A DNA stretch of 64,000 nucleotides from Candidatus Dormiibacterota bacterium. Its GTDB lineage: Bacteria > Chloroflexota > Dormibacteria > Dormibacterales > Dormibacteraceae. Within the stretch, counting starts at the first letter, position 1; each line of letters begins with the position of its first letter. Both the position numbers and the translations under genes were made by a program. Shown in pieces: positions 8,644-53,288 of the stretch. The DNA is taken from positions 15,228 through 79,227 of the forward strand of contig DATITA010000012.1 in assembly GCA_035468355.1 (NCBI GenBank), written 5' to 3'. The notes under the pieces were generated by a model. It was given only the letters and a program-made list of their open reading frames with translations, did no database searches and had not been told where the DNA came from.

Positions 8644-8645
8644 CC

Positions 8646-10149: not shown

Positions 10150-10151
10150 GC

Positions 10152-11563: not shown

Positions 11564-11564
<1 letters not shown>
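10152..11564 (-). CDS. sufB: Fe-S cluster assembly protein SufB
   Basis: Highly conserved SufB sequence (...[10 protein letters not shown]...[21 protein letters not shown]...). The ATG at 11564 is preceded by AGGAGG and overlaps the sufC stop (TGATG). The ORF track starts one codon earlier, at a TTG. Confidence 0.95.
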
Positions 11565-12332
<768 letters not shown>

Positions 12333-12340
<8 letters not shown>

Positions 12341-12977
12341 CTCTCTCTCCCTCCTCTTTCAATTCGTAGGTGCAATCGCTGGCCGCCTCGGCCATCCACG
12401 TCGAACGCGCGAGATCGGCGCCCAGCAACCTCTCGTACATCTCCTGCTCGCTCTGGCATGGCAGGCCGGTTCGGGCGGCGACGTCCTGAATGGGGCAATT
12501 GCAGTGCCGGAGGGCGAGCCCGCCGCCCGGGAGCTCGACCACCTCGGCCATGTGGCCGTGCTCGGTGGCCAGACGCGCCAGCTCGTGCAAACGCGAGGCC
12601 AGGTCCAGGCCCGCCAGTCGGGGTGCGTATTCGGCCTCGAGACGCGCAGCGCGCCGCTCGAAGAATTCCTTCAGCTGCTCGCCGGGCATGAAGTCGACCA
12701 GCTCGCCGGTCAGCTCTCGGTGCCCGTCGGGGAAGTGGTCGCCGGCGGCGGGGGTGAGGCGGTAAACGCTTTCCGGGCGGCCCCGTCCGTGCGGAACCGC
12801 CGCCACGGTGGCGAGCCCCCCGGCCTCCAGCGACTCGAGGTGGCGCAGCGCGCCCTGTTTGGACACCTCGAGGTGCGCTGCGATCTCACCGAGGGACGCC
12901 TGGCCCTGGGTCTTCAGGAAGGCGAGGATGGCTTCGCGCCTGGACTCCACGTTTCGAGTGTACGAGTTTGTCAACAT
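12333..12977 (-). CDS. sufR: ArsR/SufR-type winged-helix regulator with a C-terminal Cys cluster
   Basis: N-terminal wHTH (AILAFLKTQGQASLGEIAAHLEVSKQGALRHL) and C-terminal RHCNCP...LPCQ...DC. It is the first gene of the suf operon. Confidence 0.7.
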
Positions 12978-26053: not shown

Positions 26054-26851
26054 GTGGAGGACCTGCGTGGCAAGACCGTCCTCCTCACCGGAGCTTCTGC
26101 GGGGCTTGGACCTCACATTGCGCGCCGGCTGCATCGCGCCGGCGCGAAGTTCGTCCTTTCGGCTCGCAGCGGGCCCGCGCTGAGAAAGCTCGCCAAGGAG
26201 TTGGGCGGCTCGCGGGTCGTGGTGGCGGATCTTTCGCTGCCCGGCGAACCGGAAAGGCTTGCCCGGGCCGCGGGCCGCGTTGACGTGCTGGTCTCCAACG
26301 CTGGACTGCCCGCGAGCGGCGCGCTGACGAGCTACACCATCGCGCAGCTGGATCGTGCCCTGACGGTGAACCTTCGCGCCGGAATCGTGCTGGCGCGCGA
26401 GCTCGCGCCGGCCATGATCAAGCGCAAGTCAGGCCACCTGGTGTTCATGTCGTCTGTCGCCGGCAAGGTGCCGACCGCCGCCGCCACCCTGTACCACGCC
26501 ACGAAGTTCGGTCTCCGCGGATTTGGGCTCGCGCTGCGCGAGGAGCTCTGGGGCAGCGGAGTCGGCGTCTCGGTGATCTATCCGACCTTCGTCAGCAAGG
26601 TGGGAATGTGGGCGGAGACCGGATTGAAGGTGAACCCAATGGCGGGTGAAGTCTCGCCGGAGCAGGTGGCTGAGGCTGTGTGGTCAGCCATCACCAAGAA
26701 CCGCGGCGAGGTCGACGTCGTGCCGTTCCAGGTGAGGGCAGGTGTCGTGGCCCAGGCTCTAGCGCCGGGCCTGTTCACTTCGATCGCCCGCTCGACAGGG
26801 GCCACGCGAGCCATCGATGATCTGACCGAAAGGCAGCGCTCCAAGCGTTAG
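26054..26851 (+). CDS. short-chain dehydrogenase/reductase
   Basis: TGASAGLG, NAG and YHATK (Y-x-x-x-K). Confidence 0.85.
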   Translation: MEDLRGKTVLLTGASAGLGPHIARRLHRAGAKFVLSARSGPALRKLAKELGGSRVVVADLSLPGEPERLARAAGRVDVLVSNAGLPASGALTSYTIAQLDRALTVNLRAGIVLARELAPAMIKRKSGHLVFMSSVAGKVPTAAATLYHATKFGLRGFGLALREELWGSGVGVSVIYPTFVSKVGMWAETGLKVNPMAGEVSPEQVAEAVWSAITKNRGEVDVVPFQVRAGVVAQALAPGLFTSIARSTGATRAIDDLTERQRSKR

Positions 26852-26978: not shown

Positions 26979-29531
26979 ATGAACAACAAGGAGATGCCCA
27001 AAGCGTTTGACCCGCAGGCCGTCCAGGCCGGCTGGTACGCGCGCTGGGAGGCTGACGGCTTGTTCGTCGCCGATGCCTCGAGCAACAAGCCCACGTTCAC
27101 GATGTGCTTCCCACCGCCCAACATCACCGGTGAGCTGCACATGGGGCATGCGCTCCAAACCGCAATCTACGACCTGCTCGCGCGCTACAAGCGAATGAAC
27201 GGATTCGAGGTGCTCTTTCTGCCCGGCTACGACCATGCGGCCATCGCGACGCAGAACGTCATCGAGAAGCAGCTTTCGCGCGAGGGGTCGAGCAAGGAGG
27301 ACCTCGGCCGCGAGAAGTTCGATGCGCGAGTGCAGGACTGGTACGCCACGGTCGGCGCCACGATCATCAACCAGCTGCGATTGCTGGGCGCGTCGATGGA
27401 TTGGAGCCGTCTGCGCTTCACGATGGACTCGAGATACGTCAATGCGGTCATGACCGCGTTCGTCGCTTTCTACGAGCGCGGTTGGATCTACCGCGCGCCG
27501 CGCATCGTCAACTGGTGTCCGCGCGATCGCTCAGCCATCTCCGACCTCGAGATCCAATGGGAAGAGCACCACGACGTGCTGTACCACATCCGTTACCCGA
27601 TCGAGGGCGGTGGGGAAGTGGTGATCGCGACTGTGCGCCCTGAGACCATGCTCGCCGACACCGGCGTCGCCGTGAACCCGGCGGACGATCGCTACGCCAA
27701 CCTGGTCGGGAAGGTTGCGGTGCTCCCGCTCGTCGGCCGCAAGCTGCCTATCGTCGGCGACGAGCTCGTCGAGAAGGACTTCGGCACCGGAGCGCTGAAA
27801 GTCACCCCCGGCCACGACCCGATGGACTACGACATCGGGCAGCGACATTCGCTCGAGACCGTCAATGGAATGCATGAGGACGGCAGCATGAACGTGCCGG
27901 GTCTTCCTTATGACGGCCTGCCTGCGCTCGAGGCGCGCGCGCGAGTGGTGGCGGATCTGCGGGCGCAGGGATTGCTCGTCAAAGAGGAGCCGTACACGCA
28001 CGACGTCGGCCACTGCGACCGCTGTCACGCCGTGATTGAGCCCATGGTCAGCGAACAGTGGTGGCTGCGCATGGAGACCATGCGCGACAAGGCTCTCGAG
28101 GCGTCGGCTGCGGGCAAGGTGCGCTGGCATCCGGAGCGTTACGAGCGGACGTATCTCGACTGGCTCAACGGTCTGCGTGACTGGAACATCGGCCGGCAGC
28201 TGTGGCTCGGGCACCGCGTCCCGGTTTACTACTGCGAGAACGGACACCAGCTTGTGGCGATCGAGAAACCGGCAGCGTGCACCGAGTGCGACAGCCGAGA
28301 CCTCACTCAGGACCCAGACGTTCTCGACACCTGGTTCTCGTCGGCGCTGTGGCCGTTCGCAACATTGGGCTGGCCGGAGAAGACGGATGACCTCGCGGCG
28401 TTTTATCCGACCGACCTCAATGCCACCGCCCGCGAGATCATCAACCTGTGGGTGAGCCGGATGATCATGACCAGCCTGGAATTCATGGGCGAAGTGCCGT
28501 TCTCCGACGTGGCCATCCACTGCCAGGTCCAGGCGGCTGATGGTCGAAGGATGTCGAAGTCGCTAGGCACCGGCGTCGACCCTCGACAGCTGATCGACAA
28601 ATACGGCACCGATGCCCTTCGAGCGTGGGCAGCATCGGTCGCCATGTCGAGCCAGGACGTGCGCTTCGACGAGAGCCGCGTCGAAGGCTACCGCCGATTC
28701 TGCAACAAGCTCTGGAACGCCACGCGCCTGGTCCTGAGCTCGCCAGGCACGCCGCCCTCGGGCCCGCCCGGAATCCTGGAGGCGGGCGAGCACCTCGAAG
28801 ACCGCTGGATACTCTCCCGGCTGGCGTACGCGACATCGGCGGTCACCGCCGGCATCGAGAGCTTCACGTTCCAGGATTCGATCGCGGCCGCGTACGGCTT
28901 CGCGTGGAACGAGTTCTGCGACTGGTACCTGGAGGCGGCCAAGGAGCGGCTGCGCGACGGCGACGCCGCGGCACAGGACGTCGCGTATTTCTGTCTCGAC
29001 AACATCTTTAGGCTCCTGCATCCGTTCATGCCCTTCGTCACGGAGGAGCTGTGGTCGCGGATGCCGGGCACGCGCGACTACCTGATGCGCTCATCGTGGC
29101 CCGAAGGGCTCGACCGCCTCGTGGCTCCCGACGCCGAGGAAAGCTTCGAGCTCGTCATGAGGATCGTCGAAGAGGCCCGTGGCCACCGCCAGGCGGCTGG
29201 CGCCCCGCCGCGCGGGGGCAAGGTCAGGTTCGATGAAGCCGGCCAGACCGTCGCCATGCTGGCCGCACGGCTGGCGTGGCTGGAGCTCGACGATGGGCTC
29301 GAGGGCGGGACGCCGCTGGCGGTCGTGCCAGGTCAGGTGAGCTTTCCCGCAGGGGCCGGCGACGCCCGTCGGGTGTCGGAGCTCAAGCGCTTCAGGGACG
29401 AGCTCGCGAAGGCCGAAGCGAAGCTGGCCAACCCCGACTTCACCTCCAAGGCGCCGCCAGAGATCGTCACCAAGCTCCGGGAGCGCGCGGCGGAGCTTCG
29501 CGCGGCGATCGCTCGACTGAACACTGAGTGA
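26979..29531 (+). CDS. valS: valine--tRNA ligase
   Basis: PPPNITGELHMGHA (HIGH region), KMSKSLG (KMSKS) and a C-terminal coiled coil. Confidence 0.95.
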   Translation: MNNKEMPKAFDPQAVQAGWYARWEADGLFVADASSNKPTFTMCFPPPNITGELHMGHALQTAIYDLLARYKRMNGFEVLFLPGYDHAAIATQNVIEKQLSREGSSKEDLGREKFDARVQDWYATVGATIINQLRLLGASMDWSRLRFTMDSRYVNAVMTAFVAFYERGWIYRAPRIVNWCPRDRSAISDLEIQWEEHHDVLYHIRYPIEGGGEVVIATVRPETMLADTGVAVNPADDRYANLVGKVAVLPLVGRKLPIVGDELVEKDFGTGALKVTPGHDPMDYDIGQRHSLETVNGMHEDGSMNVPGLPYDGLPALEARARVVADLRAQGLLVKEEPYTHDVGHCDRCHAVIEPMVSEQWWLRMETMRDKALEASAAGKVRWHPERYERTYLDWLNGLRDWNIGRQLWLGHRVPVYYCENGHQLVAIEKPAACTECDSRDLTQDPDVLDTWFSSALWPFATLGWPEKTDDLAAFYPTDLNATAREIINLWVSRMIMTSLEFMGEVPFSDVAIHCQVQAADGRRMSKSLGTGVDPRQLIDKYGTDALRAWAASVAMSSQDVRFDESRVEGYRRFCNKLWNATRLVLSSPGTPPSGPPGILEAGEHLEDRWILSRLAYATSAVTAGIESFTFQDSIAAAYGFAWNEFCDWYLEAAKERLRDGDAAAQDVAYFCLDNIFRLLHPFMPFVTEELWSRMPGTRDYLMRSSWPEGLDRLVAPDAEESFELVMRIVEEARGHRQAAGAPPRGGKVRFDEAGQTVAMLAARLAWLELDDGLEGGTPLAVVPGQVSFPAGAGDARRVSELKRFRDELAKAEAKLANPDFTSKAPPEIVTKLRERAAELRAAIARLNTE

Positions 29532-29618: not shown

Positions 29619-31277
29619 ATGCCGTCGCTCGTCGTGCTGGCGCCGATCCTCATCCCGCTGGTCGCCGCAGCCCTCATCACCGCATTCGGCCTGGCCGGCG
29701 TGGATCTTGGCCGCATCTCCTGCGCCGTCGGGGCCTGGGGAGCCGTCGCGGCGCTGCTGCTCCTGTGGCTTTCGGTGCGCTCCACTCAGGACCTGAACCT
29801 CGGCCCCCTTGGTTTCGGCTCGCCGCTGCTGCTGCGAATCGACGCCGTCGGGTTTGCGTTCGGCCTGATGGTCACGGTACCCGCGGCGGTGCTGCTGTCG
29901 CTGCAGCCCCGTACGTGGCAGGAGGCGACCGTTGCCCTCGTCGGCGTCGCGGCGGCCATCACGGCGATCGAATCGGGCGGGGTGGTCCTGTGCGCCTTCG
30001 CAGGTGGAACCGCGGCCACCCTGGCGGTGGTGCAGCTCGACACGGAGGACGTGAAGGCGCCGCGCCCGAGCTGGGGTCTCCTGCTCGGCTCGTGGCTGGC
30101 CCTGAGCTGGGCCGGCGTGATCTTCGAAGCCCGCGTGGGCACCGACGGCTTCGCAGCGGTGCCGGTCGCCAACCTGACGGGCCCGGTCTTCGCGCTGATC
30201 GCAGTCGCCGCCCTCGGCGCTTCGGGACTGTTTCCGTGGCGGTCATGGCCCGCGATCGTGTGGTCGCGGCCCTCCCTGCGCGCGGCCGGGATGTCGGTCG
30301 CAACCCTGTACCCCCTGGGTTTCTACCTGCTCGTCCGAGCGTACGAGATAGGGGATGGCCGGTACCCGCAACCTGGCCTGAACGTGGTGCTGGGCGGCCT
30401 CGGCGTCGCCGTCGCGCTCAGCGCCGCGATCCGCGCCCAGGGAGCGGCGACCCGGCGCGACTTTCTCGCAGAGGTCATCCCCGGCTTTGGCGGTTTCGCG
30501 CTCATGATGATCGCGCTGGGCACGCCGCTCGGACTCGTGGCCGGCCTGCTCAGCCTCGCCACCGCGTCTGCGCTGACCGCCTGCCTCGCACTTCTTCCCG
30601 ACCGGGCGGGCCTGGCTTCCCTGTTTGCCGTCGCCGCCGCCGCCGGCCTGCCGCCCGGCTTCGCCTTCGGCGCTCGCGTGCTGGGTCTGGAGGCGACCTT
30701 CGAAGCGGGCAACTCCATCGGCCTGATCGGCCTGGCCGGGGCGGCCACCTGGGTGGTCTGGATCGTGGCAGCCGCGCGAGCCATCGGCCTGCCCGGGGGC
30801 CCCGGGCATGCGGTCGCCGAGACGTTTCCGCGAATTGCGATGGCCATCGCCGCGGTCACGATCGTCGCGGGGCCCGCCCTCGCTGCTTTCCAGTCCGCTT
30901 TCGCGAACCCGGCCCAGGGCAAGGTGATGACCGGGAGCTCGGCCGGTTCGGTGGCGGGCGGGCTGGTGAGCGTGGAGACTGTCTCGACCGTGCTTCCTGC
31001 CCTCAGTCTCTTCATTCCGCTGCTGGCGATCGCAGTGCTGGTTTACGCCTTCGCCGGCACCACGCCGGTTCGGGGCCAGACGCGGCCGGCGCTGTTCACG
31101 ATGCCCGGACGGCAACCCTTCGCCCGGCTGTGGGCCGCCGTCCGCGCCACCCGTGTTCCAGACCAGTACCGCTCGATTGTCGACCTGCGTGCCATCGAGT
31201 CGGCTGCGGCGGGTGGTCATGCGGTGCTGTGGCTCGCTGCTCTGGCCGCCCTCGTTTTTGCGGTCACCCGCCAGTGA
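29619..31277 (+). CDS. polytopic membrane protein, degenerate NuoL/M/N-MrpD (proton-antiporter-like) fold candidate
   Basis: 552 aa and about 14-16 TM helices. AIRAQGAATRRDFLAEVIPGFGGFALMMIALG lines up by eye with the family block A-x-x-Q-x-x-x-KR-x-LAYSS-x-x-x-x-G, but the Lys and YSS positions are substituted. Confidence 0.5.
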   Translation: MPSLVVLAPILIPLVAAALITAFGLAGVDLGRISCAVGAWGAVAALLLLWLSVRSTQDLNLGPLGFGSPLLLRIDAVGFAFGLMVTVPAAVLLSLQPRTWQEATVALVGVAAAITAIESGGVVLCAFAGGTAATLAVVQLDTEDVKAPRPSWGLLLGSWLALSWAGVIFEARVGTDGFAAVPVANLTGPVFALIAVAALGASGLFPWRSWPAIVWSRPSLRAAGMSVATLYPLGFYLLVRAYEIGDGRYPQPGLNVVLGGLGVAVALSAAIRAQGAATRRDFLAEVIPGFGGFALMMIALGTPLGLVAGLLSLATASALTACLALLPDRAGLASLFAVAAAAGLPPGFAFGARVLGLEATFEAGNSIGLIGLAGAATWVVWIVAAARAIGLPGGPGHAVAETFPRIAMAIAAVTIVAGPALAAFQSAFANPAQGKVMTGSSAGSVAGGLVSVETVSTVLPALSLFIPLLAIAVLVYAFAGTTPVRGQTRPALFTMPGRQPFARLWAAVRATRVPDQYRSIVDLRAIESAAAGGHAVLWLAALAALVFAVTRQ

Positions 31278-31281
31278 CCTT

Positions 31282-31824
31282 TTGATCGCAGCGGTCGGAG
31301 CTTTTCTTGGCTGGTTGGGCGTCTCGACCATCGTGCTCGCCGATGGGCGCCGCGGGCTTGCCGCCGGGCTCGCCGTCGCGACCGCCGGCCTCGCTGCCAT
31401 TGCGTGGCAGAACGGCGATGGCGTGGCCGCCGTGATCGTTTTGATCGGCGGCGGCGCGGCGGCGGTGCTGCGCTACCGTGCGGGTCCAGGCGGCTGGGCT
31501 ATGATGCCGCCCGGTTCCACGCCGCGCCTGATCATGTGCGTGGCGGGAGGCCTCGTCGCATTGTGGTTCGCGGCTTCGGTGACCACCGGCTCCGGCGGCG
31601 CGACTCGCTTCGCGGTGTTGAGCGTCATCGGGTTGAGCGGTGCTCGGATCGTGTCTAGCCGCGAGCCTTCGAGCGTGGTGACCGCCGTGGCCGTTCTTGC
31701 TCTCTCCGCCGCTATCGCCACTCACCTCGGGGCCGGCTCTCCCGGCCTCTGGCCCTACGTCGCGGCCGCCTTGGTCGCCGCTGCAGCGCCGCTGGTACCG
31801 GTGCGGGTCGCCAATGCCTCCTGA
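31282..31824 (+). CDS. small polytopic membrane protein (about 5 TM; a NuoJ-like role is speculative)
   Basis: I infer a TTG start at 31282, 5 nt after the upstream stop. 180 aa, Ala/Gly/Val-rich helices. Confidence 0.4.
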   Translation: MIAAVGAFLGWLGVSTIVLADGRRGLAAGLAVATAGLAAIAWQNGDGVAAVIVLIGGGAAAVLRYRAGPGGWAMMPPGSTPRLIMCVAGGLVALWFAASVTTGSGGATRFAVLSVIGLSGARIVSSREPSSVVTAVAVLALSAAIATHLGAGSPGLWPYVAAALVAAAAPLVPVRVANAS

Positions 31825-32866
31825 CGTGGCCACGTGCCTGCCCCTGCTAATCGCCGCGGCGGCGGCCCTGGGACTCGCGGTCGCGATGTCGCCTCCGCGA
31901 GTATCCAGGACCGCGCTCCTGGCGAGAGGGGGAACCGGGCTCGCCGGCATGGTGGCCATCGCCTTGGCGCCGAGCCTCGACCTCCTGGTGTTGGCGCTCC
32001 TGGTCCTGGCGGTGCTTCACGCCTCGCTTCCGGGAAAACGCGACTTCGCATCACGACTTCAGATGCCGGTCGTCGCCGTGGTCCTGATCGCCGTGGCGCT
32101 CCTGTTCGCTCGGGTGCAGGGCCCCGAGATGCTGCAGAGGTTCGCGGCCGTCGGGCTCGCCGCCGGCGTCGCCGCATGTGTGGGATTGCTGCCGTACATC
32201 CACGTCCTCGAACCCGAGGACATGGTGGTCGTGTCGCCCACGGCGTGGATCGGGTTCGTAGGGCCGGTCGCCGCGACTGCGATTCTGATCAAGGTGCGCG
32301 GGCTGCTGTCCCAGGATGCGGGCACCGACCTGGGGGCGATGCTCATAGCGCTGGGCCTGGTCAACATGCTGTGGGGCACGCTCGCGGCATGGAGGGCCGA
32401 GGACTCGACGCGCGCATGGCACTACTCCTTCATGGCGGATTGGGGACTGGCGCTGTGCGGTTTCGGCCTGACCGTCACCGAGGGCCAGGGGGCAGCCTTG
32501 TTGATCCTGTCGAGCATCGTGTTCGGCAGGCTGCCGCTGTATCTCGCGTCGCGCCAGGCGCTCCGTGAGCACCAGTCGGCCGACCGCCCGATCAACCTCA
32601 TGGTGGCCGCCGTGCTGGCCGGGTCGGCCCCTTTCGCAGGTTTCGCAGCCAGGGTCTTGCTCCTGCGCGCGGCGACGCAGATGTACTGGCCGCTGGCCCT
32701 CGTGCTGGCGGCCGGCATGCTGCTGTGGCTCCCGGTGGCGCTCAGGCTCGGCCGCACGTTGGGCCAGCCTCGCGGGCGCCAGGCGCTCGGCGTGGGCATC
32801 GTGATCGCCGCCAACGCGGTGGTGGGCCTCTATCCCCTGCCGCTGCTCACCCTGGCCGGCCGATGA
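31814..32866 (+). CDS. polytopic membrane protein, degenerate antiporter-like (NuoN/MrpD-like) candidate
   Basis: The ATG at 31814 overlaps the upstream gene by 11 nt. LWGTLAAWRAEDSTRAWHYSFMADWGLALCGFGL parallels G-x-L-x-A-x-x-Q-x-D-x-KR-x-LAYSS-I-x-x-x-G. Confidence 0.5.
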   Translation: MPPDVATCLPLLIAAAAALGLAVAMSPPRVSRTALLARGGTGLAGMVAIALAPSLDLLVLALLVLAVLHASLPGKRDFASRLQMPVVAVVLIAVALLFARVQGPEMLQRFAAVGLAAGVAACVGLLPYIHVLEPEDMVVVSPTAWIGFVGPVAATAILIKVRGLLSQDAGTDLGAMLIALGLVNMLWGTLAAWRAEDSTRAWHYSFMADWGLALCGFGLTVTEGQGAALLILSSIVFGRLPLYLASRQALREHQSADRPINLMVAAVLAGSAPFAGFAARVLLLRAATQMYWPLALVLAAGMLLWLPVALRLGRTLGQPRGRQALGVGIVIAANAVVGLYPLPLLTLAGR

Positions 32867-33672
32867 TCCAGATCCTGTCGGCCCTCGGCGCGCACTCCCT
32901 GGCGCTGCTCGTTTATCCCGGCCTACTCACCCTGCTCGCTTTCGGCGGCCTGGTCGAGATCGCGTGGGGCAGGCTTGCTCATGGAGTCTGGAAGCTCTCC
33001 GAGGTGCCGCGCCGCAGGCCCACGCCTGTTGCCGCCACGGTCGCCATCTGTTCGGTACTCGCCGCGGTCCAGCTGGCGGCGCCCTACAACCCCGTGCCGA
33101 CCGAGGAGCGCAGCGTGGTGATCGCCGCCATCGCGCTCGCTTTCACGGTCTGGGCTGAGCTTGCGCTGACCGTTGAGCACGTCCCTGAGCCCAGCATCCT
33201 GCTCGTCGTCGAGTTCTGCTGGCTGCTCGCGGTCTTGGGCCCGGCGGTGCAGCCGGAAAGCCTTCGACCGCAGGTGTTGGGAAACGTGCTGGTGCCGGCG
33301 CTTCTCCCGGTGAAGGTGGCGAGCGGGCTTCTCTATCTTCTTTGCCTGCCCGCGCTGCTCCGCGTCTGGCCATTTTCACCACCGGCCGACCGGCGAAGCA
33401 GGCAGCGGTTCGACCTCGCGAGAGCGCTGTCCTGGTTCTCGTACTGCGGGCTTTTCACGACACTATTCGTCCCGCCTGCGGCTGCCGGACTGCCGGCGCT
33501 GTTGCGGTTTTTCGGGATCACCTTCGGGGTGGCGGCCCTGATGGTGGTGGGGGGTCTCGTGATGGACCGGCGCGGGCCGACGCTCGCGCGAGGCCTGTAC
33601 ACGCGCGCCATGCCGCCCTTCGCCCTGTTGGTGCTGCTGCTGGTGATCGGGACCTCGTTCATCGTCCGCTGA
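32863..33672 (+). CDS. polytopic membrane protein (weak NuoH/HycD-like resemblance)
   Basis: ATGA overlap with the upstream gene. 269 aa and about 8 TM helices. The family resemblance is weak and rests on pattern only. Confidence 0.35.
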   Translation: MIQILSALGAHSLALLVYPGLLTLLAFGGLVEIAWGRLAHGVWKLSEVPRRRPTPVAATVAICSVLAAVQLAAPYNPVPTEERSVVIAAIALAFTVWAELALTVEHVPEPSILLVVEFCWLLAVLGPAVQPESLRPQVLGNVLVPALLPVKVASGLLYLLCLPALLRVWPFSPPADRRSRQRFDLARALSWFSYCGLFTTLFVPPAAAGLPALLRFFGITFGVAALMVVGGLVMDRRGPTLARGLYTRAMPPFALLVLLLVIGTSFIVR

Positions 33673-33750
33673 GCAGCCCCGCGCTGCTCGGATCCTGGTG
33701 GTAGCACCCCACATCTGGGGTCAACCTGTGGAAAACACCGCTACCAGGTG

Positions 33751-33756
33751 TATGAT
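33751..33756 (+). promoter_or_regulatory. -10-like box TATGAT upstream of mreB
   Basis: TATGAT lies 44 nt before the TTG at 33800. No convincing -35 element. Confidence 0.2.
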
Positions 33757-33799
33757 CCACCGCGACCCACCACATTTTGACCCACGACTTCCACGCGCC

Positions 33800-34858
33800 T
33801 TGAACCTGTTTTCGTCCGTGTTGGGGATCTGGTCGGCCGACGTCGGCATCGACCTCGGGACCGCCAACACGCTCGTCCACGTGCGGGGTCGGGGCATCGT
33901 GCTCAATGAACCTTCGGTCGTGGCCGTGAGCAAGCGCACAGGCCAGGTGCTGGCGGTGGGCACAGAGGCCAGGCGCATGCTGGGTCGCACGCCGGCGGAC
34001 ATCGTGGCCAGCCGGCCGCTTCGCAACGGCGTGATCGCGGACTTCGAAAGGACGGAGCAGATGATCCGCCACTTCATAGCGCGCGCCCACAACCGCGCCT
34101 GGCACGTGAGCCATCCGCGGATCGTGCTCGGCATCCCGTCAGGCGTCACGGAGGTCGAAAAGCGCGCCGTGACCGACGCCGCGTCGATGGCGGGGGCGCG
34201 AGAAGCTCACCTCATCGAAGAGCCGATGGCTGCCGCGATCGGTGCGGGGCTGCCGGTCCAGGCGGCGGGCGGATCGATGATCGTCGACATCGGCGGGGGC
34301 ACCACCGAGGTCGCGGTGATCTCGCTGGGCGGGGTGGTCGCCGCGACGTCTGCGCGCGTCGGCGGCGACGAGATGGACGACGCCATCGTGCAGTACGTGC
34401 GCAGGACGATGGGCCTGCTCATCGGCGAGCGCACAGCCGAGGACATCAAGGTGGCGATGGGCTCAGCGTTTCCCATGCCGGAAGAGCGGTCTTTCCTGGT
34501 CCGCGGCCGGGACCTGGTCACGGGTCTCCCGAAGACCGTCGAGATGACGACGGCGCACGTTCGCGAGGCGGTGTCCGGCGTGCTCATCGATATCGTGCGG
34601 GCCGTCAAGTCGACCCTGGATGCGACCCCGCCCGAGCTCGTCGACGACATCATGGAACGGGGCATGGTCGTCTGCGGGGGAGGCGCGCTCCTGTCGGGGC
34701 TGGACCAGCTTTTCGCCCATGAGACCTTGATGCCGGTGCGCATCGCGGAGGACCCGCTGACCTGCGTGGTCCGCGGCACGGGGATCGTGCTCGAGGAGAT
34801 CGACACCTTGAACCGGGTCCTGTTGCGGACGCGCCGCGTCCGGGCTCTGCGTTACTAG
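33800..34858 (+). CDS. mreB: rod-shape-determining actin homolog MreB
   Basis: DVGIDLGTANTLV, NEPSVVA and DIGGGTTEVAVISLGG. The start is ambiguous: the TTG at 33800 gives MNLFSSVLGIWSADVGIDLG; alternatives are 33698, 33752 and 33818. Confidence 0.9.
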   Translation: MNLFSSVLGIWSADVGIDLGTANTLVHVRGRGIVLNEPSVVAVSKRTGQVLAVGTEARRMLGRTPADIVASRPLRNGVIADFERTEQMIRHFIARAHNRAWHVSHPRIVLGIPSGVTEVEKRAVTDAASMAGAREAHLIEEPMAAAIGAGLPVQAAGGSMIVDIGGGTTEVAVISLGGVVAATSARVGGDEMDDAIVQYVRRTMGLLIGERTAEDIKVAMGSAFPMPEERSFLVRGRDLVTGLPKTVEMTTAHVREAVSGVLIDIVRAVKSTLDATPPELVDDIMERGMVVCGGGALLSGLDQLFAHETLMPVRIAEDPLTCVVRGTGIVLEEIDTLNRVLLRTRRVRALRY

Positions 34859-34876
34859 TGGACCGCTAGGGCCCAC

Positions 34877-35692
34877 GTGTACGGCAGGACCCAGTCTCGC
34901 TCGACCGGCCTCTTCCTGTGGATGTGCGCCGCCTTGCTCCTGGTCGCGATGGTCAGCCAGCAGTCGTGGGCGGCGGGCGCGCGGGGCGCTGCCAAGAGCG
35001 CGCTGGCGCCGTTCGAATCAGGGCTCACTGCGGCTGGAGCTCAGCTCGGCCGCGTCACGTCGGTGCTGGGGGACATGTCCGTGCTTCACGCCCAAAACCA
35101 GGAACTGCTCGCCGACGATGCGGCGCTGCGCCGCCGGGTCGTCGAGCTCGACGCTGCCGCCAGGGAGAATGCCGCGCTGCGCCAGGCGCTCGACTTCGAG
35201 AGGTCGTTGGGACGTCGCATGGTGGCGGCGCAGGTCGTCGGGCTGGGCCCCGACGGCTTCAGCCGGACTCTTGAGATCGATCGAGGCACGTCCGAGGGCG
35301 TCCAGGCGGGCATGATCGTCGCCACGGGCGCCGGGCTGCTCGGCCGCGTGAGCGAGGCCGGCCCGCATTCGGCGATCGTGCAAACGCTGGCCGCCCCGCA
35401 AAGCCGGGTCAACGTTTTTCTTTCTCGCTCGGGCCTGCAGGGCACGGTGGTCGGCGGTCCCACGGCGCTCCGGATGCAGATCGAGCACAGCATCGGCGTG
35501 GTCGCATCGAACGGCGACTGGGCGATCACCAGCGGGGTCGGTGGGGGGTACCCGCGAGGCCTGGTGGTCGGTGAGATCGCGAGCGTTTCCCACCATGACG
35601 CCGCGACCTTCGACGATGCCGTGCTGGCCTGGGTCAACGATCCCGCCAGCATCAGCCTCGTTCTTGTGATCACTGACTTCACTCCGTCGTGA
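34877..35692 (+). CDS. mreC: rod-shape protein MreC
   Basis: N-terminal TM helix, a coiled coil (LHAQNQELLADDAALRRRVVELD), and beta-domain motifs (GMIVATGAGLLGRV, YPRGLVVGEI). Confidence 0.85.
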   Translation: MYGRTQSRSTGLFLWMCAALLLVAMVSQQSWAAGARGAAKSALAPFESGLTAAGAQLGRVTSVLGDMSVLHAQNQELLADDAALRRRVVELDAAARENAALRQALDFERSLGRRMVAAQVVGLGPDGFSRTLEIDRGTSEGVQAGMIVATGAGLLGRVSEAGPHSAIVQTLAAPQSRVNVFLSRSGLQGTVVGGPTALRMQIEHSIGVVASNGDWAITSGVGGGYPRGLVVGEIASVSHHDAATFDDAVLAWVNDPASISLVLVITDFTPS

Positions 35693-36180
35693 AGAACGCG
35701 ATCGGCGCTGCGTCGTTGTTGGGCGCTGCGCTGATCCAGGTGACGTGGGCGCCCCGATTCGAGATTCTCGGGGCGTTCCCCAACCTCGTGCTGATCGCGG
35801 TCGTCGCGATCACCTGGGTTCGCGGCGTCAAAGCAGGCCTGGCGTGGGCGTGCATCGGGGGCCTGTTCCTCGATCTCACGGCGGCCGGTCCGATCGGCCC
35901 CCACGCCCTGGGTTTGTTGACCGGCGCTTACCTCACCGGATTCTGGACCCGCAACCTCGATCGGCAGAGCGCGGTCCACGTCGCACTTGCGGCGGCTGTT
36001 GGCACGGCTGCCTACTCCATGGTCCTGGTCGGCTCCGATGACACCCTCGGCCTCCCGGTGCCTCCGCTCACCGTCGCGGCCGAGCTCACGATGGCGGCCT
36101 GCGCTTACAACGCCGTTCTGACCCCGCCGGCGCTGGCGCTGCTCCGGAAGGCGCGCTTGACTGCGGCCGACACCGTTTGA
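35689..36180 (+). CDS. mreD: rod-shape protein MreD
   Basis: 163-aa, 5-TM protein between mreC and mrdA. GTGA overlap with mreC. Confidence 0.75.
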   Translation: MKNAIGAASLLGAALIQVTWAPRFEILGAFPNLVLIAVVAITWVRGVKAGLAWACIGGLFLDLTAAGPIGPHALGLLTGAYLTGFWTRNLDRQSAVHVALAAAVGTAAYSMVLVGSDDTLGLPVPPLTVAAELTMAACAYNAVLTPPALALLRKARLTAADTV

Positions 36181-38054
36181 TCGAGCTCACGCCACGCGTG
36201 GAGCTCGGCGGCGCCGCGCCGCGCGCTCGATGGTCGATGCGCCTGGTCGCCGCCGCGAGCCTCGGTTTGCTGGCGATCGGCGTGCTGGCGATCGAGCTCG
36301 CCGAGCTCCAGGTGCGCGACGGGATCCACCTCGCCGGGCTGGCCCGGGCCAACTCGGTGCACCGGGTCGTCCTCGAAGCGGACCGAGGGATCATCTATGA
36401 CCGCCACGGGACGCCGCTGGTGGAGAACAGCCCGGTCTGGAGCCTGGTGGTGGTGCCGGCAGCCCTGCCGGTGGATGCGGCCGCCCGCGCCTCGGAGCTC
36501 GCCGAGCTCGCTCGAATCACGGGCGTCGACGAGACGAAGATGGCGGACCAGCTGCTCGCGGCCGACGCATACGCCGGCATGACCGTCGCTTCGGAGCTCA
36601 CCCAGGTCGAGGAGCTCGCGGTCCAGGAACGTCTGCCGCAGCTCGCCGGGGCGTCGATCCGGCAGCGCTCGGTGAGGACCTACGTCGACCCGCTGGTGTT
36701 CGGCCACGTCGTCGGCTACGTGGGCCCGATCGACGGCACAGATGCCAAAAAGCTGCTCGGTTTCGGCTACCGGTCCGACGAATCAATCGGCAAGGTCGGC
36801 GTCGAAGCCGGGCTTGAGCCAATCTTGCGTGGCAAGGACGGTTGGGCGGACGAACAGGTTGACGCCCGAGGGCAGGTCGTGAAGACGCTCGCCATGCAGC
36901 TTTCGGTCCCTGGCGAAGCGGTGTACCTCAGCATCGACGCAGCGCTTCAGCGCGCGACTGCCGGCTCGCTGGCGGCGGGTCTGGCGCGAGATCACAAGAC
37001 CGCCGGCGCCTCGGTGGTGATCGACCCTCGCACGGGCGAGGTCCTCGCCATGGTCAGCCTGCCCGGCTACGACACCAACCTGTTCACGCATGGCATCAGC
37101 CAGCCCGAGTACAGCCGGCTGTTGCACGATCCTGACCGTCCGCTGTTGAACCGGGCCATCGCGGGCCAGTACGCCCCTGGCTCGACTTTCAAGATGGTCA
37201 CGGCGACCGCCGCCCTCCAGGAAGGCAAGATCACCGCGCAGACCCTGCTCAACTGTCCGCCGTACCTCAACCTTGGCGGCTGGGTGTATCACAACTGGGC
37301 CGCCTACAGCCTTGGGCTGATGAACGTCGCCAAGGCGCTGGCGACTTCGTGCGACACGTTCTTCTACCAGGTCGCCGCCATGGTGGGCGACGTCACGCTG
37401 GCGAAGTATGCGCGGGCCTTCGGCTTCGGCCAGGCCAAGTCGATCGAGATGCCGGGCGTGATGGCCGGCCTTGTCCCAGACAGCACCTGGAAGCAGCTCC
37501 AGTGCGGTGCGGCCGACCTCAACTCCGACTCGTGCCGGTGGACGGACGGCGACACGATCACCTTCGGCATCGGCCAGTCTTATCTCCTCACGACGCCGCT
37601 CAACCAGGCGGTCTACGTGGCAGCCCTTGCCAATGGGGGGCAGGTGCTGAAGCCGACGCTCGTGCACCAGGTCCGCGACGGTGCCGGCCGCATCGTCGAA
37701 ACACAGCATCCACTCGTGACGAGCACGGTCCCGGCCTCGCCGCAGACCATCCAGGCTGTGCGCGAGGGCATGAGGGAGGAGATCAATCGTCCGTACAACA
37801 TGAACTACTGGTTCCGCGCGGCCGGAGTGCCGGCCGACGGCGGCGGCAAGACGGGCACCGCGCAGTGGGGCGGCAGCGGCCTCGACCTTCCGACCCACGC
37901 CTGGTTCGTGTTCTTCGCGCCCTACTCGTCGCCGGACGTCGCGATGTCGATCTTCGTCGAGCGAGGAGAGCTGTCGGAGGTGGAGGCTGCGCCAATCGCG
38001 GTCGACATCATGAAGTTCTACCGCGCCAACCAGGCCGCGGTCCGGGGGCAATGA
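36177..38054 (+). CDS. mrdA: penicillin-binding protein 2 (elongasome transpeptidase)
   Basis: R-G-x-I-x-DR-x-G (DRGIIYDRHGTPL), STFK and KTGTAQ. TTG start with a TTGA overlap with mreD. Confidence 0.9.
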   Translation: MIELTPRVELGGAAPRARWSMRLVAAASLGLLAIGVLAIELAELQVRDGIHLAGLARANSVHRVVLEADRGIIYDRHGTPLVENSPVWSLVVVPAALPVDAAARASELAELARITGVDETKMADQLLAADAYAGMTVASELTQVEELAVQERLPQLAGASIRQRSVRTYVDPLVFGHVVGYVGPIDGTDAKKLLGFGYRSDESIGKVGVEAGLEPILRGKDGWADEQVDARGQVVKTLAMQLSVPGEAVYLSIDAALQRATAGSLAAGLARDHKTAGASVVIDPRTGEVLAMVSLPGYDTNLFTHGISQPEYSRLLHDPDRPLLNRAIAGQYAPGSTFKMVTATAALQEGKITAQTLLNCPPYLNLGGWVYHNWAAYSLGLMNVAKALATSCDTFFYQVAAMVGDVTLAKYARAFGFGQAKSIEMPGVMAGLVPDSTWKQLQCGAADLNSDSCRWTDGDTITFGIGQSYLLTTPLNQAVYVAALANGGQVLKPTLVHQVRDGAGRIVETQHPLVTSTVPASPQTIQAVREGMREEINRPYNMNYWFRAAGVPADGGGKTGTAQWGGSGLDLPTHAWFVFFAPYSSPDVAMSIFVERGELSEVEAAPIAVDIMKFYRANQAAVRGQ

Positions 38055-39172
38055 CCGGCCGGTCGGCCTGGAGGCGGCTGGACCACGCGCAGCCGATGCT
38101 GGCCGGGATCCTTTGCATGCTCGGTGTGATGACGGTGTTCAGCGCCAACGCGGACTGGGTCCGCCAGGTGCTGTGGGTCGTCCTCGGCGCAGCCGCATAC
38201 GTCGCGGCGTCGGCGTTCGATTACCAGAGGTTGCGTACGATCGCTCCCGGCCTTTACCTGGCGATGCTTCTGATGCTGCTCGCGGTCCGGCTCGTCGGCC
38301 GATCGGCGCTGGGCGCGCGCCGCTGGCTGTCGGTGGCGGGATTTCCGCTGGAGCCTTCAGAGATCTCCAAGCTCATCCTCGTGGTGGTCCTCGCCGCATA
38401 TCTCGCGCGGCAGGAGCGGCCCTCGTGGCGTGCATTCGCAGGAGCGCTCGCCCTGCTGGCGCCGCCGGCCTTCCTGATCCTCTCGCAGCCCGACCTCGGC
38501 ACGACCATCGTCTTCGTCGCGGTCCTGCTGGGCATGTTGTTCCTGGGTGGCGCTCGCCCGGCCCAACTGCTGTCCCTGGTCGCAGCCGGGGCGGTCGCGC
38601 TGCCCCTGCTGCCCCACCTGCTGCACGGTTACCAGCGCCGCCGGCTCGACATCTTCCTCGATCCGCACCAGGACCCGCTGGGCGCCGGCTACAACCTGCT
38701 GCAGGCGCGAATTGCGGTCGGGGCGGGTGGATTCTTCGGCCAGGGCTGGCTGCACGGACTGCAGGGACAGCTCGGGTTCGTGCCCGAGCGCGCGACCGAC
38801 TTCGTGTTCGCGATCTTCGCGGAGGAGTTCGGCCTGCTGGGCAGCCTGGTGCTGCTGGCGATCTTCGGGATGCTCCTTATTCGCGTGCTCCGGGCCGCCG
38901 CAGTGGCCTCGGACCGGTTCGGTGAGCTGATGGCCGGCGGGGTGTTCGCGATGATTTTCGTCCAGGTCGTGCAGAACGTCGGAATGAACGTCGGGCTGCT
39001 TCCGATCGCCGGCATCCCACTGCCCCTGATCTCGTACGGGGGCTCGGCCACGATCACGATCCTGGCCGCGCTCGGCGTGGTGCAATCCGTGGTGCTCCGG
39101 CGGCGGGCCGTGCTCCACCGGGAAGACTCGAGCCCCGCTCTTGGTACAATCACACGCCGTGCCCAAGCCTGA
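38051..39172 (+). CDS. rodA: SEDS peptidoglycan polymerase RodA
   Basis: EISKLILVV, QPDLGT, ATDFVFAIFAEEFG and PLPLISYGGSA. ATGA overlap with mrdA. Confidence 0.9.
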   Translation: MTGRSAWRRLDHAQPMLAGILCMLGVMTVFSANADWVRQVLWVVLGAAAYVAASAFDYQRLRTIAPGLYLAMLLMLLAVRLVGRSALGARRWLSVAGFPLEPSEISKLILVVVLAAYLARQERPSWRAFAGALALLAPPAFLILSQPDLGTTIVFVAVLLGMLFLGGARPAQLLSLVAAGAVALPLLPHLLHGYQRRRLDIFLDPHQDPLGAGYNLLQARIAVGAGGFFGQGWLHGLQGQLGFVPERATDFVFAIFAEEFGLLGSLVLLAIFGMLLIRVLRAAAVASDRFGELMAGGVFAMIFVQVVQNVGMNVGLLPIAGIPLPLISYGGSATITILAALGVVQSVVLRRRAVLHREDSSPALGTITRRAQA

Positions 39173-46416: not shown

Positions 46417-46422
46417 GGGACG

Positions 46423-48401
46423 ATGCGAGCTTCATGCCGGCGTCGCTTTGAGAGCGGACAGGCGATAGTGCTGATCGCCATCATGCTGGCGGTCGTCGTC
46501 GGGATGGCGGCTCTCGCGATCGACGGCTCGCGCGCATATTCCATGCGGCGCGACCTCCAGGCGGCGGTGGATGCCGCGGCGCTGGCGGCGGCGGACAACC
46601 TGCAGCAAACGGGCAGCTACACGTCGGCCGAGCAGGCGGCATCCACCATCTTCGGCATCGACGCGCGCTTCTATGGGGCGCCGTCGTGCTCCCCGGGGTA
46701 TGGGTCGCCAGGCGCATCGCCCTTCACCGTGACCTGCACCTATTCGGACGGGACCACGCTGACGGACGTCGTCTCCAACCTGGGTTCGCAAGGCGCGCAG
46801 TTCAGCTTCACCGCGGCACACTCGCTCGCGCTTCAGTTCGCCCGCATCCTGATGAGCGGGACGCCGCCCAAGATCGTCGCCACCTCCTCCGGCGGGGTGG
46901 ACAACCTCCTTTACACCCCGGCCGTCGGCGCCCTGGCCAGTGCTGGTTGTGGCGGGACAGGTGGCAGCGCCGTGACGGTCAACGGCTTCGGGACCGCCAG
47001 CATGGTGGGTGACCTGGTTTCCAATGGCGCCATATCGGTGGCCGGCGGCAGCCTGCGCGTCGCCGGCGACATCTATGCACGATGTCAGGCCTCCGTCCCC
47101 GGGTCGTCGACGGCTTGCTTTCCAAGCGGGCTGGCCGCCCCGTGCACGTTCCCTGACGTTAACGGAGCCGTTCGTTCCGGCTACCAGCTGGGCGATCCGA
47201 ACTTTCCGGCGCCAGCGGTTACCGGCGGCAGCCGGGGAGCACCGGGAAGCACCGTGGTGCTCCAGGCCGGGTCATATGCTGCCAATCCCGGTTTCAGCGG
47301 AGGGCACTGCTGGTTTCTAAGCGGTGGCGTCTACCAGTGGCAGTCCGGCTACACGAACAGTCGGGACTTCGTGAGTAACGAGCTGAAGCCCCCTGACGAA
47401 CCGGCAACCACAAACGTCCGTCAGGTCTCCGCTCACCAGTTCTGGAACACGAACGGCGTCCAGTGCGCCGGGTCGGTCCTGGTGAGCGGCGTCGGCGGAC
47501 CGAACACCCTCGACAAGGGCAACTTGGGTGTGGTGCTGACCTCCGTGCGCACGGACTCCTACGGTGGCGCCACCTACCGCCGTGAGAGCGCGCCGTCGGC
47601 GTGCCAGGCAGTCCATATCAAGGTAGGCGAGGTGCTCCAGGTCCAGGTGAGCAACGTGCCCGGCGCGACTTCCTACAACGTGTATGCCAGCGACGTTGCG
47701 AACGGCTGCAAGGGACCATGGGGCTGGGCGGGCTCCATCCCGGTGGTCGGTACGGTGTCGAACAGCAACACCAACCCGTGCCCAACGTTCAGCGGCAACG
47801 GGTGCAGCCTGGGCCATGAGACGGCTCTGTTCGACAGCACTCAATTGCCCGACGTTTTTGCCCCCAACCCGTTGGCTGCGCTGGACACGTACGAGGCATA
47901 CCCACCAGATTCGGAGACCGCGCCGTTGAGCAGCACGCTGCCCAATCAGAATCCGCCGCGCGGAACCGGCGCCACCGGCGATCGCGCCAACGAGAACAAC
48001 TGCGAGACGACGACTGCAGCGTATTCAACGTGTCCCGACGCGGTCACCCCTGGCGCCGTCGAGTTCTATGTCCCAAATGGCGGCTGCCTGTCGACGACGA
48101 ACAGCGGCGACACGTATATGTTCAGCGGCTACCAGTACAACTGGCTGTCCGTTTTCGAACCTGGCGCCGGCTCGCCTCCCGCCAACACTTGCACGAACAC
48201 GCTTGGCGCCAGCGGGTTTTCGGCGTACGTGGGGCTCGTTTACGTGCCGTCGGCCGTCGTGGCCATAACCTCGGCGTACGCCTTCGAGGCAGCGGCGACC
48301 GGGGGATTGCTGGCCAGCTCGGTCACCTTCACCGGAGCTCTACCAACAATCACGTACAGCTCCAGTTACGGGCCGGTGCCGCCGGCCGCCCGCCTGACCG
48401 G

Positions 48402-48405
<4 letters not shown>
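46423..48405 (+). CDS. TadG-like large pilus-associated protein
   Basis: The N-terminus ESGQAIVLIAIMLAVVVGMAALAIDGSRAY...DAAALAAA matches the Tad_N/TadG motif. It is followed by about 560 aa of Gly/Ser/Thr/Cys-rich, presumably extracellular, sequence. Confidence 0.7.

Positions 48406-53288
<4,883 letters not shown>

Follow-up and report, generated by a model that had tools for sequence, protein, structure and literature searches.

A conserved four-gene locus of Dormibacterota that probably encodes a repurposed membrane arm of the complex I/Mrp superfamily

Four tightly packed genes, designated here g1 to g4, lie between valS and the mre cluster in a genome of a Candidatus Dormiibacterota bacterium. 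Do their products form the membrane arm of a respiratory complex, a cation/proton antiporter, a scaffold linked to the elongasome, or something else? The locus was analysed in a stretch of 64,000 nucleotides (the window; contig DATITA010000012.1) and compared with related genome loci.

Results

Four genuine genes conserved as a block

The sizes and junctions of the four genes in the original prediction were borne out by the ORF list and the sequence. All are on the forward strand: g1 (29619-31277; ATG, 552 aa) for a NuoL/MrpA-like antiporter-type subunit, g2 (31282-31824; TTG, 180 aa) for an orphan subunit with 6-7 transmembrane (TM) helices, g3 (31814-32866; ATG, 350 aa) for a shortened NuoN/MrpD-like antiporter-type subunit, and g4 (32863-33672; ATG, 269 aa) for a NuoH/ND1/MbhM/HycD-like subunit, as assigned below. 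Each product is polytopic and very poor in Lys; the membrane proteins of this genome are all short of Lys (one each in RodA and MreC). A 4-nt gap (31278-31281) separates g1 from g2, g2 and g3 overlap by 11 nt, and g3 and g4 share an ATGA overlap. The ORF of g2 opens at 31153, and its start at 31282 is supported by the median length of 180 aa among 79 g2 orthologues. Among the related loci, the g2/g3 junction was -11 nt in 43 of 79 and the g3/g4 junction -4 nt in 54 of 76, and the commonest g1/g2 junction was -4 nt. The upstream neighbour of g1 is valS (26979-29531, forward strand), as in all loci covering the upstream side except the divergent L086; the two genes are 87 nt apart here, and in relatives often 10-30 nt. 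It is probable that g1-g4 are expressed constitutively along with valS.

Purifying selection acts on each of the four genes, with dN/dS values of 0.09-0.25, similar to those of valS, mreC and obg. They are real genes and not chance ORFs: more than 800 database homologues were found for each of g1, g3 and g4, and g2 homologues were recovered in 79 of 80 related loci. The block was present with the same order and strand in 80/80 related genome loci and also in five far more divergent lineages (27-43% identity), and the four genes strictly co-occur, with overlapping reading frames. The g4 family comprises just 113 clusters among 1.84 billion representatives, and the members with a credible taxon name were all Dormibacterota or 'Chloroflexi CF_' MAGs. 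As far as can be seen, the module is confined to the phylum Dormibacterota. A single partial member carries the label Binatia; we took this record to be mislabelled.

Folds and relatives of the subunits

Derivation of two of the proteins from antiporter-like subunits had been proposed, and both assignments stood, g1 by its fold together with profile-profile alignment and g3 by HMM matches. A Pfam search of 30 g1 family members gave no match, and none of g1, g2 and g4 has a significant Pfam or NCBIfam match. The AlphaFold2 model of g1 (pLDDT 72.6, pTM 0.77) shows a beta-hairpin behind TM2, and TM7 and TM12 are broken in it, which is a hallmark of antiporter-like subunits. The protein has a core of 14 TM helices, extended C-terminally by TM15, a polar linker and TM16. 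When the model was compared with the PDB by Foldseek, 146 matches were obtained at E <= 0.001 with a top probability of 1.0, and the best 50, those listed, were all NuoL, MrpA, MrpD, HycC, NuoM or NuoN (E 6e-10 to 1e-6, TMq 0.46-0.67). The hhalign comparison with E. coli antiporter-like paralogues gave an E-value of 7e-5, against 0.07-0.9 for the control comparisons. By fold and by profile-profile alignment, g1 is an antiporter-like subunit. The two signature blocks that had been lined up by eye turned out to be the stretches aligned by hhalign to NuoL 296-320.

The g3 protein extends from TM7 to TM14, with about four additional N-terminal helices. Its own PF00361 match (E 0.003, 17.2 bits) falls below the cut-off of 21.5 bits, and 11 of 30 g3 orthologues matched this family, with a best E-value of 8.6e-8. 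Matches to NCBIfam NuoN (TIGR01770, E 5e-6) and MrpD (NF009306, E 9e-5) and an hhalign alignment to NuoL 224-410 (E 1e-4) were also obtained. Judged by these profiles, g3 belongs to PF00361 as a shortened and divergent member. For g2, no relative was found in Pfam, NCBIfam, PDB sequences or by hhalign; its deeply conserved residues are W72, S79, R82 and R122. In the divergent lineage L091, g2 and g3 are fused into one 500-aa protein, in which the g2 match spans residues 9-158 (E 9.5e-12) and the g3 match residues 190-499 (E 6.4e-32). The two proteins may jointly constitute one NuoN/MrpD-like unit, split in the window and fused in L091.

The likeness of g4 to NuoH/HycD, suspected earlier, was recovered in its AlphaFold2 model and by Foldseek, without a sequence signal. 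The model (pLDDT 74.2, pTM 0.77) shows 8 TM helices and short cytoplasmic loops, and its best 45 PDB matches were all subunit-H-type chains, from complex I, MBH and FHL (E 0.025-0.8, TMq 0.39-0.60). PF00146 matched 0 of 120 g4 family members, and hhalign gave E-values of 0.15-0.19, with no sequence-level link to subunit-H proteins. The model thus points to a NuoH/MbhM/HycD-like fold for g4. The protein falls about 55 residues short of E. coli NuoH, and its cytoplasmic loops, placed from the secondary structure of the model and the positive-inside rule, are predicted to be about 14 (TM1-2) and 19 (TM5-6) residues long. In NuoH, the loops forming the quinone chamber have roughly 40 residues.

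Replacement of the proton relay

The charged residues of NuoL were mapped onto g1 and g3. The position of K229 is Ala in both proteins, that of H254 is Ser/Thr/Ala, and those of H334 and H338 are hydrophobic. K342 corresponds to R239 of g3 (81/81 sequences), and K399 to R353 of g1 (67/74) and R280 of g3 (81/81). This map shows none of the canonical TM5 Glu, TM7 Lys, TM8 Lys/His and TM11 His, and Arg replaces the TM12 Lys. The claim that the canonical Lys and Glu are missing was therefore upheld, with an ambiguous mapping of the TM5 Glu in g1, where E118 sits near the aligned position and hardly varies within the main clade. No family-conserved Lys was found in g1 or g2, and no Lys in the TM helices of g3. 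In g4, K151 is kept in 78/79 sequences, which indicates that a Lys that is needed is not lost to GC bias alone.

Other charges were retained. D209, R239 and R280 of g3 are invariant, E32 and K151 of g4 are deeply conserved, and the buried charges in g3 and g4 are invariant down to about 30% identity. E285 of g1 is invariant in the 74-sequence main-clade alignment and is Ser in one divergent lineage. Going by the aligned residues, the module has lost the usual Lys/Glu/His proton relay.

Comparison with respiratory complexes and Mrp antiporters

The module could be the membrane arm of a full respiratory complex (complex I, Ehr or group-4-hydrogenase-like) whose redox-active peripheral subunits are encoded elsewhere in the genome. 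The fold of g4 speaks for this, since a NuoH-like subunit anchors a conserved membrane-anchored peripheral module in every characterised system (Yu et al. 2021, PMC8165549). The likeness to complex I is also clear: NuoL is the best structural match for g1 (E 6e-10) and NuoH/ND1 for g4, NuoN is the best NCBIfam match of g3, and the g1 model shares the beta-hairpin and the broken helices. However, complex I has three antiporter-like units and this module two, no NuoA/J/K homologue and no Q or N module are recognisable in it, the relay is replaced, and g3 and g4 are shorter. Complex I is encoded by the nuo operon, whereas g1-g4 sit among housekeeping genes (valS, rplU).

The minimal arms of FHL, Hyf and Ech (E. 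coli HycC+HycD; HyfB/C/D/E/F) are similar in combining a NuoL-like with a NuoH-like subunit, and Hyf, like the present module, has a further antiporter-like subunit. HycC (7z0t_C) and HycD (7z0s_D) were among the Foldseek matches of g1 and g4, respectively. These arms are always encoded beside, and carry, a [NiFe]-hydrogenase peripheral module, but none is near g1-g4; moreover, the TM5 Glu and TM7 Lys that are missing here are kept in six or seven of seven compared E. coli paralogues. Among the Thermococcales complexes, MbhM (6cfw_M) was the second-best g4 match, and the MBS antiporter-like chain 6u8y_X matched g1. As in MBH/MBS, antiporter-like subunits are few, and any lateral connecting element would be short (PMC8165549). 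In MBH and MBS there are also Mrp-type small subunits and a module for hydrogenase or sulfane-reductase activity, while g1-g4 have neither.

As had been predicted, the neighbourhood lacks peripheral-arm and small Mrp genes. By tblastn, none of NuoB/CD/E/F/G/I, HycE/F/G and HyfG/H/I was found, either in the window or across 1.4 Mb of related loci, no peripheral-arm homologue occurs within about 10 kb of g1-g4 in any related locus, and neither g2 nor the neighbourhood gave a match to any MrpB/C/E/F/G family. Considering also the short loops of g4 and the loss of the relay that a redox module would drive, a split respiratory complex is unlikely.

Another candidate is a functional Mrp-like antiporter of monovalent cations and protons that relies on non-canonical residues. 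Mrp (Mnh/Pha/Sha), too, lies wholly in the membrane and has two antiporter-like subunits; MrpA (7d3u_A) and MrpD (7qru_D, 6z16_D) were strong structural matches for g1, whose model retains the broken helices, and conserved intramembrane charges are available in g3 and g1 (E285, R353). Mrp, however, contains MrpB/C/E/F/G and no NuoH-like subunit, to which g4 would be foreign, and its canonical charged residues are missing from g1-g4. The Arg at the TM12 position does not substitute for Lys in this respect, as Arg cannot cycle protons. We regard this explanation as quite improbable.

Relation to the mre cluster

The original prediction suggested that g1-g4 may form a membrane scaffold associated with the elongasome. 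In the window, mreB-mreC-mreD-mrdA(pbp2)-rodA (33818-39172, forward strand) follow g4. The start of mreB had been put at 25-130 nt past g4; the first possible start, GTG at 33698, is indeed 25 nt from the g4 end at 33672, but the start fitting the MreB N-terminus is at about 33818-33821, roughly 145 nt past g4, beyond the upper figure. The spacer (33673-33817) contains a sigma-70-like site (TGGAAA, 16-nt spacer, TATGAT; 33729-33756), a consensus match of which one was found in the scan against 0.2 expected.

The mre cluster is directly 3' of g4 in 32 of the 71 informative species, and mreC-mreD or mreB-rodA also come after g4 in two divergent lineages, L086 and L091; having mre genes at this position is probably the ancestral state. 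In the other 39 of 71, however, rplU directly follows g4, with the g1-g4 order unchanged. Four loci (L013, L038, L050, L073) carry mre deletion remnants beside intact g1-g4, such as the C-terminal 88 aa of rodA (L013), an mreC fragment (L038) or mreB only (L073), and because such partial remnants persist, the cluster must have been deleted in place. Neither mre nor rplU is downstream of g4 in L089, and in L009 and L023 inserted genes of no relation separate g4 from mreB. The g1-g4 module is independent of the mre cluster, an optional neighbour; with the promoter-like spacer site added, an obligate link is largely refuted, and the elongasome scaffold is scarcely tenable.

Discussion

A superficial resemblance, in which unrelated polytopic proteins give helical-bundle or AlphaFold2 artefacts, would fit the missing family matches of g1, g2 and g4 and the weak Foldseek E-values of g4, but is hardly credible given the uniformly antiporter-like matches of g1, the independent sequence support for g1 and g3, and the single subunit type among the best g4 matches from three kinds of complex.

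The best explanation, to which we assign a probability of roughly 0.6, is that g1-g4 form one integral-membrane complex, a stand-alone, repurposed membrane arm of the complex I/group-4 hydrogenase/Mrp superfamily that is specific to Dormibacterota. A single complex is suggested by the conserved order and strand, the overlapping junctions and the g2-g3 fusion in L091. The g1 protein would be the distal NuoL/MrpA-like subunit and g4 a shortened NuoH/MbhM/HycD-like 'heel' subunit, and the subunits may line up H-like, N-like, L-like, as in a short arm of the complex I type, where the C-terminus of g1 (TM15, linker, TM16) could act as the clamp.

Since fixed charges (D209, R239 and R280 of g3; E32 and K151 of g4) stand in place of the protonatable relay, the complex probably has a role different from canonical proton pumping of the redox-driven or Mrp type. 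An inert scaffold seems somewhat unlikely. We tentatively rank above it a retained charge-coupled function, either transport or conformational, with g2/g3-g4 at its centre, because invariant buried charges are costly to keep, and it is such a charge-dependent activity that this complex may provide in Dormibacterota.

Gene organization of the module

The four plus-strand genes g1 (29619–31277, 552 aa), g2 (31282–31824, 180 aa, TTG start), g3 (31814–32866, 350 aa) and g4 (32863–33672, 269 aa), collectively designated the module, constitute a single conserved and translationally coupled gene set under purifying selection. The ORF list and the sequence reads confirmed exactly the positions and junctions of the original prediction, i.e., a 4-nt gap between g1 and g2, an 11-nt overlap between g2 and g3, and an ATGA overlap between g3 and g4. 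The dN/dS values of the plus-strand genes were 0.09–0.25, comparable with those of valS, mreC and obg, and hundreds of homologues were found for each gene. The numerous antisense ORFs in this high-GC stretch were without support. The window has a G+C content of ~68%, and its proteins match metagenome-assembled genomes (MAGs) of Candidatus Dormibacterota.

The module is preceded by tig, clpP, clpX, an SDR gene and valS, and followed by mreB, mreC, mreD, mrdA, rodA, rplU, rpmA and obg. The SDR gene (26054–26851), located between clpX and valS, was found in a subset of related species, and is thus a variable insert within an otherwise conserved housekeeping gene string. Elsewhere in the window, the minus-strand region 3058–12358 encodes citrate synthase (3058–4350), a SufS-type class-V aminotransferase (7426–8883) and SufB/D (10152–11582), which are ordinary TCA-cycle and Fe-S assembly genes unrelated to the module. 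A 1644-codon open frame on the minus strand (48405–53336), adjoined by a Tad/Flp-pilus-type gene at 46417–48405, showed Pfam matches to the T2SSE ATPase of type II/IV secretion (residues 271–547), adenylate/guanylate cyclase (935–1095) and AAA_16 (1119–1293), and is either an unusual fusion or at least two in-frame genes.

Distribution among genomes

By a pattern scan with one genome per species, a relative of g3 was detected in 96 species, and 80 loci were retained. All of these are of the Dormibacterota type, with some records labelled as Chloroflexi or implausible taxa, and the order g1-g2-g3-g4, the strand, and the position of valS directly 5' were constant in every retained locus covering the region. 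When the g4 family was used in an exhaustive profile search of 1.84 billion representatives, no more than 113 clusters were recovered, with no canonical NuoH among them; the named members belong to Dormibacterota, except for one partial sequence labelled Binatia. The module is also kept in five divergent lineages, in which valS is 47–65% identical and the module proteins are 27–43% identical. One of these lineages has mreC-mreD downstream and lacks valS and mreB, and another has neither mre genes nor rplU downstream of the module.

Loci of the Dormibacterota type also occurred in assemblies labelled as Nitrosotalea, Nitrosopolaris, Micrarchaeaceae, Eisenbacteria, Acidoferrum, Sulfotelmatobacter or Limnocylindrales (L014, L018, L019, L028, L029, L031, L045, L077 and L079), and these records are probably mis-binned or mislabelled MAGs. 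Neither Pfam nor NCBIfam has a model that covers g1, g2 or g4. The source annotations read 'hypothetical protein' almost throughout; automatic NuoN/NuoM/MnhD labels occur a few times on g3 and once on g1, and no description of the module in Dormibacterota was found in the literature.

Antiporter-like subunits g1 and g3

Of the module proteins, only g3 is directly linked to the antiporter superfamily at the sequence level. The window copy matched PF00361 (Proton_antipo_M) with 17.2 bits (E 0.003), under the curated cut-off of 21.5 bits, while 11 of 30 orthologues matched with a best E of 8.6e-8, and several carry a precomputed PF00361 domain. NCBIfam matches were obtained with NuoN (TIGR01770, E 5e-6) and with the MrpD model (E 9e-5). 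The hhalign alignments of g3 cover TM7 to TM12 of the antiporter-like subunits, and the leftover C-terminal length would accommodate TM13-14.

For g1, neither PF00361 nor any other Pfam family was matched in the 30 members checked. The AlphaFold2 model of g1, built from a 112-sequence alignment (pLDDT 72.6, pTM 0.77), predicts the 14-TM antiporter fold, with a beta-hairpin after TM2 at 57–74 and discontinuous TM7 and TM12 (breaks at 203–209 and 354–355). In the Foldseek search of this model against the PDB, the best 50 matches were all NuoL, MrpA, MrpD, HycC, NuoM or NuoN chains (E from 6e-10, probability 1.0, TMq up to 0.67). The hhalign comparison with the seven E. coli antiporter-like paralogues improved from E 4e-4 to 7e-5 once divergent orthologues were added, and control comparisons gave E 0.07–0.9. 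Profile searches of PDB sequences with the families of g1, g2, g3 and g4, whose alignments are of low diversity (Neff ~2–3), gave no match.

The predicted topology of the g1 C-terminus is TM15, a 55-aa polar linker and TM16. This arrangement is compatible with a lateral helix, but the linker is proline-interrupted, weakly amphipathic and of low confidence in the model, and the assignment is not claimed.

g2 and the predicted NuoH-like subunit g4

Pfam and NCBIfam searches of g1, g2, g4 and 30–120 orthologues of each yielded nothing meaningful, and no relative of g2 was detected by Pfam, NCBIfam, PDB-sequence profile search or hhalign. The comparisons of g2 and g4 with E. coli NuoH/HyfC/HycD, NuoJ, NuoK, NuoA and HyfE stayed at noise level (E 0.13–0.9), and none of the Mrp small-subunit families was matched by g2 and its 60 orthologues. 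In one of the divergent lineages, L091, the module consists of three genes, encoding proteins of 491, 500 and 214 aa, with the full mre cluster (mreB-mreC-mreD-mrdA-rodA) downstream. The 500-aa protein (L091:5687–7189) is a fusion of g2 (residues 9–158, E 9.5e-12) and g3 (residues 190–499, E 6.4e-32), Rosetta-stone evidence that g2 and g3 act as a single unit. The length of the fused protein is the canonical length of NuoM/N/MrpD, and the fusion together with this length suggests that g2 may represent the N-terminal helices of an antiporter-like subunit, encoded as a separate gene. No sequence similarity of g2 was found either to the g1 N-terminus or to TM1-6 of NuoL/M/N; a connector subunit later fused to g3 is a possible alternative.

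None of the 120 members of the g4 family matched PF00146 (NADHdh) at E ≤1, and hhalign of g4 against E. coli NuoH/HyfC/HycD gave noise-level values of E 0.15–0.19. The AlphaFold2 model of g4 (pLDDT 74.2, pTM 0.77) retrieved exclusively NuoH/ND1, MbhM and HycD chains as its top 45 Foldseek matches in the PDB, with probability 0.84–1.0, TMq 0.39–0.60 and E 0.025–0.8. This model provides moderate evidence that g4 has the eight-TM subunit-H fold.

Proton-relay residues

The E. coli reference columns were verified first, and the canonical proton-relay residues were then mapped to g1 and g3 via the hhalign alignments. NuoL K229 (TM7) corresponds to A201 in g1 and C122 in g3 (Ala in most of the g3 family), and H254 (TM8) to S226 in g1, a variable position (Ser/Thr/Ala) that is not aligned in g3. 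In TM11, H334 corresponds to S312 in g1 (Thr/Leu/Met/Val in the family) and to a hydrophobic residue in g3, H338 is not aligned in g1 and is hydrophobic in g3, and K342 is not aligned in g1 and corresponds to R239 in g3 (81/81). K399 (TM12) is replaced by Arg in both proteins, R353 in g1 (67/74) and R280 in g3 (81/81). The TM5 Glu was not found in g1, where the 'WE' context is deleted; Glu118 lies close to this position and maps ambiguously, and within the main clade it hardly varies. The N-terminal part of g3 has no mid-helix acid. Judged from these alignments, the conserved relay (TM5 Glu, TM7 Lys, TM8 Lys/His, TM11 His/Lys, TM12 Lys or Glu) has been lost.

Mostly-Lys columns were found in neither the g1 nor the g2 family, and the only one in the g3 family is located in a loop. 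Since g4 K151 is Lys in 78 of 79 sequences, a needed Lys is evidently retained despite the general scarcity of Lys in the genome. Across lineages at 27–43% identity, the fixed residues are E362, R387 and the TM12 Pro-Pro in g1, W72, S79, R82 and R122 in g2, D209, R239 and R280 in g3, and E32 and K151 (Lys or Arg) in g4. The five divergent lineages offered no less degenerate intermediate, being likewise without Pfam matches and canonical residues.

Relation to the mre cluster

The original prediction had linked the module to the elongasome. This link was not supported, and the module is independent of the mre genes. Downstream of g4, mreB was found in 32 of 71 informative loci and rplU directly in the other 39, and several loci retain, beside intact g1–g4, only remnants of a deleted mre cluster. 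The remnants comprise the last 88 rodA codons only (L013:11895–12158), mreB with an mreC fragment (L038:5893–7077), mreB alone (L073:5561–6559) and mreC alone (L050:12082–12855), and they indicate that the cluster was eroded in place. Its varied erosion, and its absence in about half of the species, suggest repeated in-place losses of the Rod system in the phylum, which are possibly rod-to-coccus transitions.

In some species, g4 and mreB are separated by inserted, unrelated genes, which encode a protein of 382 aa whose C-terminus is HNH-type (L009:8700–9848) and a metallophosphoesterase-like protein of 244 aa (L023:11841–12575), both judged by eye. In the window, the 145-nt g4-mreB spacer contains a sigma-70-like promoter match (TGGAAA, 16-nt spacer, TATGAT) at 33729–33756, and mreB probably starts at the GTG/TTG at 33818–33821 and not at the longest-ORF start 33698. 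No convincing intrinsic terminator was found between the module genes or before mreB, the matches falling inside coding sequence.

Discussion

The nearest architectures to the module are complex I, the membrane arms of FHL/Hyf/Ech, which combine NuoL-like and NuoH-like subunits with or without extra antiporter-like subunits, and Mrp. The module belongs to this superfamily by fold, and g3 also by sequence, but lacks the conserved relay residues of the antiporter family. No homologues of NuoB/CD/E/F/G/I, HycE/F/G or HyfG/H/I were found in the window (64 kb) or in the related loci (1.4 Mb); with no such peripheral module, the four-gene set does not qualify as FHL, Ech, MBH or complex I. MrpB, C, E, F and G were not found beside the module, where the neighbours are valS, mre genes or rplU, and this, together with the presence of a NuoH-like subunit, distinguishes it from Mrp. 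The expectation that peripheral-arm and MrpE/F/G genes are missing nearby was thereby borne out. The idea of a derived antiporter arm is supported by the predicted g1 fold and its hhalign matches, the g3 HMM matches and the modelled subunit-H fold of g4; PF00361 matches in g1 and PF00146 matches in g4 are lacking.

The furthest-reaching interpretation, to which we assign a probability of about 0.35, is that the module is a stand-alone, redox-independent membrane arm of the complex-I type, universal in and specific to Dormibacterota, composed of a NuoH-like subunit and two antiporter-like units, one of them gene-split, in which the relay has been replaced by a fixed Asp/Arg network serving a new charge-coupled function. 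In the most likely mechanism, the proteins would assemble as a short complex-I-type arm in the order of the H-like g4, then g2/g3, and then g1, whose C-terminus (TM15, polar linker, TM16) could clamp g3 like helix HL. The length of HL tracks the number of antiporter-like subunits (PMC8165549).

As for the function, Arg is unable to cycle protons in the way that Lys can, and its presence in place of Lys makes it unlikely that the complex is a pump or an Mrp antiporter of the canonical kind. That the module is purely a scaffold, a possibility raised by the original prediction, is in our view less likely, because buried charges that are invariant over deep divergence favour a charge-coupled role; a retained role in charge-coupled transport or conformational change is therefore tentatively preferred. 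The new function might be to transport some other ion or solute, or to signal through conformational changes linked to the membrane potential. A NuoH-like subunit comes with a peripheral module in every characterised system (PMC8165549), as would be the case here if a partner module were encoded elsewhere in the genome, a reading that we consider less probable.

Current models of complex I evolution have a soluble redox module docking to an Mrp-like antiporter, with a NuoH-like subunit as the anchor. The module, whose key parts g2, g4 and the assembly are predictions, would interest specialists in this field, and if the furthest-reaching interpretation is true, g4 would be the first NuoH-like subunit working without a Q-module. 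Dormibacterota is an abundant soil phylum with, to our knowledge, no cultured member, and the module may serve as a marker of this lineage. Across the phylum, the anchor and the antiporter-like folds are kept under selection while the redox arm and the relay are gone. Such a module is either a membrane arm 'stripped' by nature or a branch of the superfamily with a new function, and it offers a natural experiment on the capabilities of these folds when Lys/Glu chemistry is absent.
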